DNA from: an archaeon
GTDB lineage: Archaea; Nanobdellota; Nanobdellia; Woesearchaeales; UBA9642
Reading direction: 5' to 3'
Assembly: GCA_043806035.1 (NCBI GenBank)
Contig: JAZDHK010000035.1
Location: 1-24,448, forward strand
DNA length: 24,448 nucleotides
Made by a program: the position numbers and the translations under genes. Every line of letters starts with the position of its first letter. Position 1 is the stretch's first letter. Shown piece by piece: positions 1,420 to 18,916 of this stretch. Under the pieces are notes generated by a model. That model was not told the DNA's origin, did no database searches, and saw nothing but the letters and a program-made list of their open reading frames with translations.

Positions 1420-2025
1420 ATGCACGAACGCCTACACATCTCGGCAGAAGGGCTTGATACACTCATGAACAAGACACTGCCCGCAGCACGCAGCGCTCTT
1501 GCCGAGTGGAAAGAGAGTGTTGCAGGGATACTCGTGAAAGGAGACAATGTGTGGACTCCTGCGCTCATCGAGGTCCACGACGACACGTATGACATTTCTC
1601 CCGTCGTTGCCGTGCACGGTGTGGGCAGCCACAAGACGGGTGACAGCTACACTGACCTAGTACAGATCATGCAGAACGGTTTCTCTGGCAGGAATGGACC
1701 ATTCAACGCGTATGGCGGAAATGACGTCGAGGCCCCTTCAGTATGGATGCAGCCATCACAAAGAGAAGAGACAAAAGGAGACAAGTACTGGCTGACCGTG
1801 CTCAAATTCCAGCCAAATGCTGTAATGTCAAGAGAAGTGGAACGCGTCAAGAATGGCAGGTTCCCGCTTGCAATAAAGAGCGCACAATCTCAGGATATTG
1901 TTGCAAACATCATGCTTGCATCAAATCTTTCGAAAGCAGAACAGAACAGGCGTCTTGCCCTGTATCTGCAACTATCAGGAACAATTTCTATTCACAACTA
2001 CGCGTCAACAAACAAAATAGAATAA
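1420..2025 (+). CDS. Hypothetical protein (201 aa)
   Basis: Long ORF divergent from mutY with TATA-like TTTATGAA about 20 nt upstream; no family recognised. Confidence 0.7.
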   Translation: MHERLHISAEGLDTLMNKTLPAARSALAEWKESVAGILVKGDNVWTPALIEVHDDTYDISPVVAVHGVGSHKTGDSYTDLVQIMQNGFSGRNGPFNAYGGNDVEAPSVWMQPSQREETKGDKYWLTVLKFQPNAVMSREVERVKNGRFPLAIKSAQSQDIVANIMLASNLSKAEQNRRLALYLQLSGTISIHNYASTNKIE

Positions 2026-2099
2026 CACCACCACTCATCAGTGGTTATTAATGGAAAGGTTTATAAACGATGTCTGATTGACGTAGGCAAGGTGATAGC

Positions 2100-17244: not shown

Positions 17245-18117
17245 TTAAGCATAGTCTGCAGCAACAGTCGCAGGCACGGCACGTTTACGTTCTGTATCCC
17301 GCACAAACCCCCTGATATAGATGCGTTCCGTACCCAGCATGGCCTTGAGCGGTCCGAGGATGTCATTCGGAGTTCTTTTTGTGCCAAAGCTCAGGAAATC
17401 AGCTGCGAAATAGCCATGCTCATTGTAGGAGTGGTAATGCCCGAAGCCATCGCTGAACATGGACATACCCGTAATGCCGCCTTTCTCGTAGAGCTGTCGC
17501 CCATTGCCGTCGTGCAGCGGTGACGCATCGAACTGGTAGTGCTTCTCGAAGATGAGCTGTTGCGTCTCTCCCTTGAGGTAGATGTCGTGCATGATCCGAT
17601 TCAATCGTTCAGGATCCTCGAGCAGGAGATGATCTATGCCGAAGCCGTCGACTATGAGATGATGGTAGGGCTGGTCGAGGCGCGTGTATGCTGCGTCTTT
17701 GAGTATGCGCTCCTCATTGCCTCGGACGATGATGCCCAAAGGGTTATGGTTGCTGATGACGCAGTGCTCGATGCCTTTGCCGAATGCGTCATGCACGATG
17801 CTCCTGTCCTTGGCCACGATGCCTGGATCTGACTCGTTGCCACAGGTGAAGATGTCGAGTGTCGCCTTTCCTGTCAGAAGATCGAGCGTGAGATACTGCA
17901 GTGATTCTTTGATGAGGGCGGCGGAGTGGATTCTGCCGTCGTGCTGCATAACGTAAGGTCCTAGGAGAACGTTTGCTTTGATGCGTGCAAGGATATTGGA
18001 AGAGACAGCCCTGACAGTATCGAGATAATTTGGCGCAAAAAGAGAAAGATCTACGTGAGAAACGTCAATGATGGCTTGGCGCCCATCTGCAGAGTATGTT
18101 TGAAATGGTGTGTTCAT
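17245..18117 (-). CDS. speD: Tandem two-domain S-adenosylmethionine decarboxylase-family proenzyme
   Basis: Domain 1 LIKE71-S72...LDIFTC92G; domain 2 HLIVD...GGITG...HSYNEHGYFAAD. Confidence 0.75.
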   Translation of the reverse strand: MNTPFQTYSADGRQAIIDVSHVDLSLFAPNYLDTVRAVSSNILARIKANVLLGPYVMQHDGRIHSAALIKESLQYLTLDLLTGKATLDIFTCGNESDPGIVAKDRSIVHDAFGKGIEHCVISNHNPLGIIVRGNEERILKDAAYTRLDQPYHHLIVDGFGIDHLLLEDPERLNRIMHDIYLKGETQQLIFEKHYQFDASPLHDGNGRQLYEKGGITGMSMFSDGFGHYHSYNEHGYFAADFLSFGTKRTPNDILGPLKAMLGTERIYIRGFVRDTERKRAVPATVAADYA

Positions 18118-18329: not shown

Positions 18330-18788
18330 TCAGATGCGCATGGGCAACTCCTTGATGGTATTCAGGATGAGAATGGTGTTCGTCCTCTCGACAAAATCAT
18401 ACGTTTGGATGGTCTTGACGAAGGTGTCCAACTCACGCACCGTTCTGAATCTGCAGACGAGCACCGTATCGAAATCACCCGTGATATCATAGACTTCATA
18501 GATGTTGTGGAATTTGGCGAGCTTCTTGTCCAATTCCAGGAGTTTGCCTTTGGCGATACGCAGCTGGATGAGCGCCTTGATCGCATAGCCGAGCAATGCA
18601 TAGTCGATGATCGCCGTATAGTGCTTGAGCACGCCTTGCCGTTCAAGCTTTCCTATGCGGTTGAGGACGGTGACGAAACTCACCCCTGTTCGCTTGGCGA
18701 GCTCACGTAAAGGCAATTTCGCGTCGGCGATGAGCTCACTCATAATCAGCACATCCGTATTGTCGATGGCAAGTTTAGTTTTGTTCAT
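18330..18788 (-). CDS. Lrp/AsnC family transcriptional regulator
   Basis: IDNTDVLIMSEL..DAKLPLRELAK HTH; YDITGDFD; VERTNT. The start could be 18794. Confidence 0.92.
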   Translation of the reverse strand: MNKTKLAIDNTDVLIMSELIADAKLPLRELAKRTGVSFVTVLNRIGKLERQGVLKHYTAIIDYALLGYAIKALIQLRIAKGKLLELDKKLAKFHNIYEVYDITGDFDTVLVCRFRTVRELDTFVKTIQTYDFVERTNTILILNTIKELPMRI

Positions 18789-18916
18789 CCGCATCCACCC
18801 CACAACCAAAATATGTGAAAAATGTTCAATTAACATGTAAAAAAAGGTGTTTATTTTAATTCTTTTCGAAAGAAGCTTTATTATTGTACTATTCTTTTGT
18901 CCTAGCAGGTGAGAAC

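Follow-up and report, generated by a model that had tools for sequence, protein, structure and literature searches.

We describe a gene in a 24,448-nucleotide window, the whole of contig JAZDHK010000035.1 (C35) of an archaeal genome assembly (GCA_043806035.1, order Woesearchaeales; 1.50 Mb in 42 contigs, estimated 93.7% complete). The gene, on the minus strand at positions 17245 to 18117, encodes two S-adenosylmethionine (AdoMet) decarboxylase (AdoMetDC; SpeD) domains in one polypeptide, between which a single set of catalytic residues is divided. The product is probably a single-chain pseudo-dimer of the class 1b SpeD type, with halves that pack like the two subunits of the homodimer and with one composite pyruvoyl site instead of two.

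Two SpeD domains in one open reading frame

The open reading frame (ORF) is unbroken, begins with ATG and lies inside the 24-kb contig. The features on which the argument turns are listed below, with the evidence for each.

17245..18117, minus strand: fused two-domain SpeD ORF (class 1b AdoMetDC fold), 290 amino acids (aa) plus stop; from the ORF translation, PF02675 and AlphaFold2 (AF2)
17683..18117, minus strand: N half, the 'donor' SpeD domain, aa 1-145; from hhalign and the motif table
17248..17682, minus strand: C half, the 'acceptor' SpeD domain, aa 146-290; from Pfam, alignment to 1tlu/1vr7, and hhalign
17902..17907, minus strand: codons of Glu71-Ser72 (GAA TCA), predicted serinolysis site; codons read, S72 invariant in 6/6 fusions with the same order of halves, modelled interface
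17842..17844, minus strand: codon of Cys92, equivalent to Cys83 of Thermotoga maritima; invariant in the three-way and six-way alignments, modelled interface
17470..17472, minus strand: codon of Thr216, at the position of T. maritima Ser55 and human Ser229; 1tlu alignment, three-way invariant, model contacts with 68 and 73
17431..17433, minus strand: codon of His229, at the position of T. maritima His68 and human His243; 1tlu alignment, three-way and six-way invariant, modelled interface
17419..17421, minus strand: codon of Glu233, at the position of T. maritima Glu72; 1tlu alignment, three-way invariant, kept in 8/9 acceptor halves, modelled interface

Against PF02675, for which the Pfam cut-off is 25 bits, the whole protein scores 58.3 bits in two stretches and is above the cut-off. 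It fails the class 1b equivalog test of NCBIfam, scoring 41.2 bits with TIGR03330 (cut-off 75.65 bits). When scanned separately, the C half reaches 44.8 bits over the entire PF02675 profile. For a more sensitive comparison of the halves, profiles of the N or C halves of this protein (P0001) and of its relatives P0004 and P0005 were aligned by hhalign with 14 single-domain SpeDs, 13 from the host's archaeal phylum and one from an Ignavibacteriales metagenome-assembled genome (MAG). The N-half profile matched them with a probability of 98.1% (E 1.4e-13, 93 columns), ES aligning to ES and TCG to SCG, and the C-half profile with a probability of 99.2% (E 9.8e-20). Judged by these profiles, the N half is a genuine SpeD domain despite its weak Pfam score. 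The two stretches matched by PF02675, together with the hhalign result for the N half, bear out the proposal of two SpeD domains in one chain that had been made when the ORF was first read (hereafter the original prediction), for which an HMM search had been suggested. A direct hhalign comparison of the N-half with the C-half profile detected no similarity. For annotation, a plain 'S-adenosylmethionine decarboxylase' label should be considered unsuitable for fused genes of this kind.

Catalytic residues are split between the halves

In T. maritima AdoMetDC, S63, H68 and C83 are described by Li et al. (2023; PMC10407285) as essential for processing and catalysis. For the human enzyme, PMC3975893 names Ser68 as the residue that gives rise to the pyruvoyl group and states that processing requires Ser229 and His243, with T. 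maritima Ser55 as the analogue of human Ser229. We mapped the C half by HMMER alignment to the T. maritima enzyme (PDB 1tlu, native numbering). It places T216 at S55, D223-G224 at E62-S63, H229 at H68, N232 at P71, E233 at E72 and F244 at C83; the C half retains T216, H229 and E233, and its cleavage Ser and its Cys are gone. The N half aligns without gaps from the Ser to the Cys and shows the reciprocal pattern, with H64 at S55, E71-S72 at E62-S63, T77 at H68, L81 at E72 and C92 at C83. It retains E71-S72 and C92, and the equivalents of Ser55, His68 and Glu72 are gone. The full Ser63/His68/Cys83 set is found in neither half alone, only across both halves of the 290-aa chain. The remaining human counterparts are Cys82 for the Cys and Glu247 for the Glu.

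The original prediction had named every residue of this reciprocal split, and both the 1tlu alignment and the N-half mapping agree with it; the T. maritima core sequence that it had used likewise agrees with the 1tlu chain. An aromatic residue, Tyr210, stands six residues ahead of Thr216, at a position where canonical SpeDs carry a Phe that has a role with the substrate.

Predicted structure and packing of the halves

From a six-row alignment, AlphaFold2 modelled the protein as one compact body (mean pLDDT 76.5, pTM 0.78) with an identical order of strands and helices in both halves; the ESM Atlas model of the protein has a pTM of 0.79. The top Foldseek match in the PDB is 1jl0, an unprocessed human AdoMetDC mutant (E 1.3e-7, probability 1.00, 308 columns). 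It is followed by class 1b chains of T. maritima and Aquifex, each covering one half, at target TM values of 0.71-0.79 (0.72-0.79 for the T. maritima chains). A profile search of PDB sequences returned class 1b chains only. In the Atlas structure search the protein matched, with TM 0.72/0.77 over 242 residues, a 271-aa bacterial AdoMet_dc cluster that is most frequent in Thermodesulfobacteriota.

Folded as two separate chains, the halves scored 0.78, and the best of three controls scored 0.00; the mark for this score is passed by 58 of 80 solved complexes and by 2 of 110 mismatched pairs. The two-chain runs share 56% or more of their contacts, and the partner's pLDDT is 77 or higher. On the side of the first half, the confidently modelled interface includes residues 64, 66, 68, 71-73, 75, 88, 90 and 92; the second half contributes 214, 216-218, 229, 233, 240 and 244, and the pairs 73-216 and 68-216 rank among those with the least expected error. 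In the model, both catalytic residue sets meet at this interface.

Conservation of the split in relatives and other fusions

When 1.84 billion representatives were searched exhaustively with phmmer, five proteins were listed at E <= 0.001: the query itself, P0002, P0003, P0004 (273 aa) and P0005 (257 aa). P0002 and P0003 were discarded as relatives, their sequences being those of low-complexity repeat proteins. The true relatives, P0004 and P0005, are both singletons, carried on short metagenomic contigs from different sources. At 25-29% identity they share the two-domain build of the query, including its conserved N terminus and linker. Word-indexed searches returned the query alone, or the query with P0004, and no further family members; when searched with the alignment of fusions, they gave five close relatives of one fusion from the phylum (L024) and no bacterial reference proteins. 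The sole yield of a scan of genome contigs was an ordinary speD-speE pair from the Ignavibacteriales MAG, which served as the canonical reference, and a scan of metagenome contigs for relatives found none.

Alignment of the query with P0004 and P0005 leaves 31 invariant columns, among them E71, S72, T91, C92, G93, G214, T216, H229, E233 and D240. Six fusions with the same order of halves share only nine invariant columns, and S72, C92 and H229 are among these. Because the same catalytic residues are invariant at 25-29% identity, the residue pattern is non-random.

We compared nine fusions in all: the query, P0004, P0005 and six from a survey of the phylum described below (L023 to L028). In 9/9, exactly one half retains the equivalents of Ser63 and Cys83. 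The acceptor half has kept His68 in 9/9, Ser/Thr55 in 9/9 (eight aligned, one by eye) and Glu72 in 8/9. It has lost Cys83 in 9/9 and the Glu-Ser pair in 8/9, the exception being L027, in which an aligned Glu-Ser is followed by an eight-residue insert. The donor half has lost Glu72 in 8/9 and His68 in 4/9. Two complete sites occur in none of the nine. The decay is graded: in L023 a complete first half is joined to a dead second one, in L024 the first half lacks Glu72, and the query, P0004, P0005 and L027 are fully reciprocal.

A model with one composite pyruvoyl site

Each site of the class 1b homodimer would combine Ser63 and Cys83 from one chain with Ser55, His68 and Glu72 from its partner. 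We draw this cross-chain site from the correspondence of human and T. maritima residues and from the statement on the eukaryotic protomer in the available text of Li et al. (2023), which equates it with two class 1b chains. After a fusion and the death of one of the two sites, residues that served only the dead site would be free to decay. In the protein described here, the proenzyme would cleave itself between Glu71 and Ser72 into chains of 71 and 219 aa, sizes that had been predicted originally and that follow arithmetically from the predicted site. Ser72 would become the pyruvoyl cofactor at the head of the 219-aa chain, with His229 and Thr216 of the second domain aiding cleavage across the interface. 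The proton donor during decarboxylation would be Cys92 of the first domain, and Glu233, probably with Tyr210, of the second domain would help to bind the substrate. The symmetry-related second site is presumably dead, because both of its residue sets have been lost. A single composite site, as proposed in the original prediction, is supported by the conservation in relatives and by the interface of the two-chain model, which sets 71-73 and 92 against 216, 229 and 233.

Several points weigh against this model. The N half, scanned separately, scores 17.3 bits with PF02675, which is under the cut-off. The match to 1jl0 has a TM of 0.48 by query and 0.45 by target, at an rmsd of 8.5 A. The result of the two-chain modelling may echo the solved T. 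maritima dimers (1tlu, 1vr7) and would then not be independent evidence, and the list of modelled interface residues is the sole geometric evidence for a composite site. The cross-subunit role of His68 in class 1b enzymes is itself an inference from the residue correspondence and from the statement on the protomer. Self-cleavage and catalysis, too, are predictions.

Substrate and alternative explanations

AdoMet is the leading candidate for the substrate, at somewhat under an even chance by our rough estimate. L-arginine comes next as a possible substrate of clearly lower probability, a compound other than these is less probable again, and L-ornithine is the least probable. In favor of AdoMet, both halves group with canonical-type SpeDs, outside the local SpeDA-like clade (support 99/95, and 89/91 without the motif columns). 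Glu72 is retained in nearly all acceptor halves, the aromatic Tyr210 is kept, and the host genome encodes a bacterial-type MetK and three PNP/MTAP-family genes; an archaeal-type AdoMet synthetase was not found in it. Three observations count against AdoMet. A spermidine synthase gene, speE (PF01564), was not found in the assembly, although the genome is incomplete and its absence is unproven. A clear speE is present in only 1/5 of the other fusion-bearing genomes. Finally, the available text of Li et al. (2023; PMC10407285) states that a Pro (Pro71 in T. maritima) is completely conserved in bona fide AdoMetDCs and that its loss marks SpeDA; in our protein it is replaced by Asn232. For SpeDC, the diagnostic residues are four: a Gln, a Thr, a Phe and a Tyr.

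The strongest alternative keeps the architecture and changes the chemistry: a neofunctionalised SpeDA-like arginine or SpeDC-like ornithine decarboxylase that would produce agmatine or putrescine. We regard this as a tentative alternative of some weight. A genome without a detected speE is the kind of anomaly that, according to the same text, led Li et al. (2023) to the arginine and ornithine decarboxylase (ADC/ODC) forms, the exchange of Pro71 for Asn232 is a SpeDA mark, and a PLP-dependent ornithine/arginine decarboxylase (PF02784) was not found in the host genome. On the other hand, contig C9 of the assembly already carries a pyruvoyl arginine decarboxylase (PvlArgDC, PF01862) and an arginase/agmatinase-family gene, together with a deoxyhypusine synthase, and arginine is less likely because the first two are present. 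Moreover, both halves fall in the tree with canonical-type SpeDs and not with the SpeDA-like clade of the same order, and P0004 and P0005 keep the Pro.

Each half is incomplete on its own, the family is very rare (two true relatives in 1.84 billion representatives) and no partner pathway gene lies nearby, so that the protein could also be imagined as a dead pseudo-enzyme, a regulatory or scaffold remnant like the trypanosomatid AdoMetDC prozyme, which, in the available text of PMC3253432, shows that dead AdoMetDC paralogues can be retained. We consider this unlikely: one complete catalytic set is invariant across the halves at the low identity of the relatives, and that set would not survive drift across three lineages, or across 9/9 fusions. 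A misjoining of two adjacent speD genes by assembly or gene calling is hardly credible. The phylum does contain speD genes in unfused tandem pairs (G411, G136), but the frame is continuous within its contig, the same architecture occurs in P0004 and P0005, which come from other data sources, and in L027, and AF2 gives a single compact body. [quoted passage not shown] The order of domains and the residue split are those of the human enzyme, as the original prediction had pointed out from the Ser and Cys in the first half; human AdoMetDC is the top PDB fold match over its full length; the host is archaeal; and the fusion model in the available text of Li et al. (2023; PMC10407285) has no archaeal example. 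Even so, we judge this descent very unlikely. By sequence the protein does not fall inside class 2, with PF01536 absent even at E <= 10 and class 1b chains alone in the PDB profile search, and the TM to human AdoMetDC, at 0.45-0.48, is below 0.5. The host is DPANN-type and not Asgard, the fusion was not found in 40 close relatives, and convergence is simpler given that both orders of halves recur in the phylum and that fusions also occur in bacteria.

Origin of the fusion

The proposed single-chain pseudo-dimer with one composite site most likely goes back to one among several SpeD-SpeD fusions that occurred independently, each followed by reciprocal decay of redundant residues. Repeated independent fusion with convergent decay is the simplest account because both orders of halves are found in one archaeal order and fusions are found in several bacterial phyla. 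A first domain tree united all seven donor halves of both orders (94/91), a grouping present in 96% of bootstrap trees. With 12 catalytic or motif columns left out, this clade came back in 5% of bootstrap trees; because it vanished, we attribute the grouping of donor halves to shared losses and not to descent. A differentiation into donor and acceptor before fusion, with a single origin for both orders, was therefore rejected. The N-half clade of P0001, P0004 and P0005 is robust to the same removal (95/90). A single clade that holds the N and C halves of all three was not rejected by an approximately unbiased (AU) test (p = 0.21), and the sequence data would fit either fresh duplicates or diverged paralogues as the source of the fusion. 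Of the duplication-fusion proposed in the original prediction, the fusion stands; an internal duplication is one of two possible sources, the halves showing no detectable similarity to each other. Of the two histories that it had offered, an independent replay fits better than an intermediate of the eukaryotic origin, for which there is no class 2 signal and against which fusions recur in both orders.

A broader reading would be that DPANN archaea preserve, in various stages of decay and in both orders, the path from a homodimeric class 1b SpeD to a single-chain enzyme with one site, here in a genome without speE, where it would make decarboxylated AdoMet or use another substrate outside classical spermidine synthesis. 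We hold this combined scenario to be a long shot.

Comparison with known SpeD fusions

Eukaryotic AdoMetDC has long been read structurally as two fused prokaryotic SpeD chains. Bacterial SpeD-SpeD fusions have been characterised, and in the available text of Li et al. (2023; PMC10407285) none is detected in archaea. That text describes a Victivallis vadensis fusion of SpeD1 with a degraded SpeD2, with similar proteins in Lentisphaerota and Desulfobacter latus. The sole self-cleavage site of the V. vadensis protein is in its first domain, its C domain is dead, and it is processed to two chains only. This one-site bacterial fusion was put forward to model how the eukaryotic enzyme, the protomer of which corresponds to two fused class 1b chains, arose. 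The same source reports SpeD-SpeDC fusions from Desulfotignum phosphitoxidans and Ca. Omnitrophica OLB16, which have two cleavage sites and two pyruvoyls and combine AdoMetDC with ornithine decarboxylase (ODC) activity.

As in the V. vadensis fusion, so far as it is described there, the protein reported here joins two class 1b SpeD domains in one chain of about 270-290 aa. It differs in its archaeal host and, on comparison with the published description only, in an N domain that is itself incomplete, lacking the equivalents of His68, Glu72 and Ser55. Whereas the genes for bacterial SpeD1-SpeD2 fusions are described as lying directly upstream of speE, ours has no adjacent speE and none was found in the genome. 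With the D. phosphitoxidans and OLB16 fusions it shares two SpeD-fold domains in one ORF; unlike them, it has one Ser-Cys set only. As in eukaryotic class 2 AdoMetDC, its first half holds the pyruvoyl Ser together with the Cys, and its second half supplies the Ser/Thr, the His and the Glu, but there is no detectable sequence similarity, the length is 290 as against about 330 aa, and the halves are still recognisably class 1b. Each half has the fold and core motif of the T. maritima class 1b enzyme (1tlu/1vr7/1tmi), in which two identical 130-aa chains form two equivalent sites, in contrast to the unlike halves and one site here.

In the literature available to our search, no paper described a SpeD-SpeD fusion from an archaeon. 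The novelty implied by the original prediction was overstated in view of the bacterial precedents characterised in Li et al. (2023; PMC10407285, available text): the general design was already known from bacteria, and what is new is the archaeal host and the reciprocal decay of both halves. These are the first archaeal examples of the one-chain, one-site SpeD design. Extant models for the SpeD fusion step were bacterial only, and archaeal fusions are now seen in 7/401 genomes. The natural series from L023 through L024 to the present gene and L027 offers a test of how an obligate composite site becomes fixed after fusion, and could also test whether His68 truly works across the interface. In addition, the enzyme, an orphan of the SpeD fold whose genome has no detected speE, joins the candidates in the search for new substrates.

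Distribution of SpeD fusions in the phylum

Among 40 relatives of the same family and order we found no full-length match, and single-domain SpeDs occur in seven of these genomes only. We extended the survey to 401 genomes sampled from the phylum, of which 69 were matched by the family profile and 121 by PF02675. ORFs were read at eight places chosen for two matches in one frame, a long frame, or a match to the N-half profile. A further nine places with long frames or adjacent PF02675 matches were also read, and these contained no SpeD-SpeD fusions. SpeD-SpeD fusions are present in 7/401 genomes, namely the host and six others. The Ser-Cys half comes first in G257 (L023), G359 (L024) and G406 (L027), and second, in mirror order, in G160 (L025), G229 (L026) and G412 (L028). 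Neighbors of these other fusions include AsnA, Lrp/AsnC, TctA, a DRG-type GTPase, MscS and an MgtE-like protein, and no polyamine genes. The three mirror-order fusions (family f33) each have a DRG/Obg-type GTPase gene (MMR_HSR1 + TGS) as a tail-to-tail neighbor, and an MscS-like channel gene lies near two of the three.

Other arrangements of SpeD also came to light. Fusions of a complete SpeD with a deoxyhypusine synthase (DS; SpeY-like), about 445 aa long, are encoded at L015:1495-2826 (+), L017, L020 and L021 and, truncated, at L022, in five genomes of the same order as the host (G247, G321, G220, G115 and G293). The L015 product scores 95 bits with PF02675 and 363 bits with PF01916. In a Woesearchaeota MAG described in the available text of Li et al. 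(2023; PMC10407285), speDA is clustered with speY; genes of the L015 type differ from that case in carrying SpeD and a SpeY-like domain in one gene. SpeD-SpeE fusions of about 357 aa occur in the same order at L046:474-1547 (-) in G342 and L047:547-1617 (-) in G250, the former with the domains PF02675, PF17284 and PF01564.

Unfused tandem speD pairs were seen in two genomes. In G411 (L045:1263-1613 and 1688-2029 (+)), the first gene keeps the Glu-Ser and the Cys and has a Tyr at the His68 position, and the second gene is complete. In G136 (L044:1150-1985 (-)), the two genes overlap by four bases. Such pairs could represent heterodimer stages that precede fusion. Degenerate SpeDs were found fused to a SET domain at L043:1178-2008 (+) in G229, and preceded by a CxxCxxCC zinc/iron-chelating domain at L039:758-1534 (+) in G159 and L040:1230-1994 (-) in G225; all three have Thr-Ser in place of Glu-Ser. 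The further long frames are fusions of SpeD with domains of unknown identity.

Host genome and gene neighborhood

The host is archaeal, as the original prediction had concluded. The archaeal SSU rRNA model matches over its full length (1386 bits), and genes for Hjc and a tRNA-intron endonuclease are present. Upstream of the fused gene lie a glutamine synthetase gene (glnA) and a regulator gene:

18330..18836, minus strand: Lrp/AsnC-type regulator, 212 bp upstream on the same strand; PF01037 and PF13404 (control of the fused gene is not implied)

An Lrp/AsnC gene also stands just upstream of the fused gene in G257 (L023:1246-1698 (+)), there beside asnA, and this recurrence is a weak hint of amino-acid-responsive control. 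The downstream neighbor is a 2,3-bisphosphoglycerate-independent phosphoglycerate mutase (iPGM) gene, and no polyamine gene lies next to the fused gene. In the closest iPGM-bearing relatives, G001 (61% identity) and G004 (54%), the genes upstream of iPGM are unrelated, so that gain and loss of the fused gene are indistinguishable. The GC content of the gene region is 0.51, within the 0.44-0.55 seen across the window, and gives no compositional signal of recent transfer. A scan for sigma-70 promoters and terminators was set aside as meaningless for an archaeon.

Elsewhere in the genome, the PvlArgDC match (C9:8910-9386 (-)) lies within a 327-aa open frame, roughly double what is typical for the family. 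A second SpeD-like ORF, degenerate and with one domain, of 123 aa, lies on contig C33 (L002:1384-1755 (+)) and scores 21.6 bits with PF02675, below the cut-off. It has Asp-Ser at the place of cleavage, keeps the Cys and has a Gly at the His68 position. Its nearest neighbor in the tree is a complete SpeD from a genome of the same family (100/99), and it adjoins genes for Hjc, an RNase Z-like protein and the tRNA-intron endonuclease.

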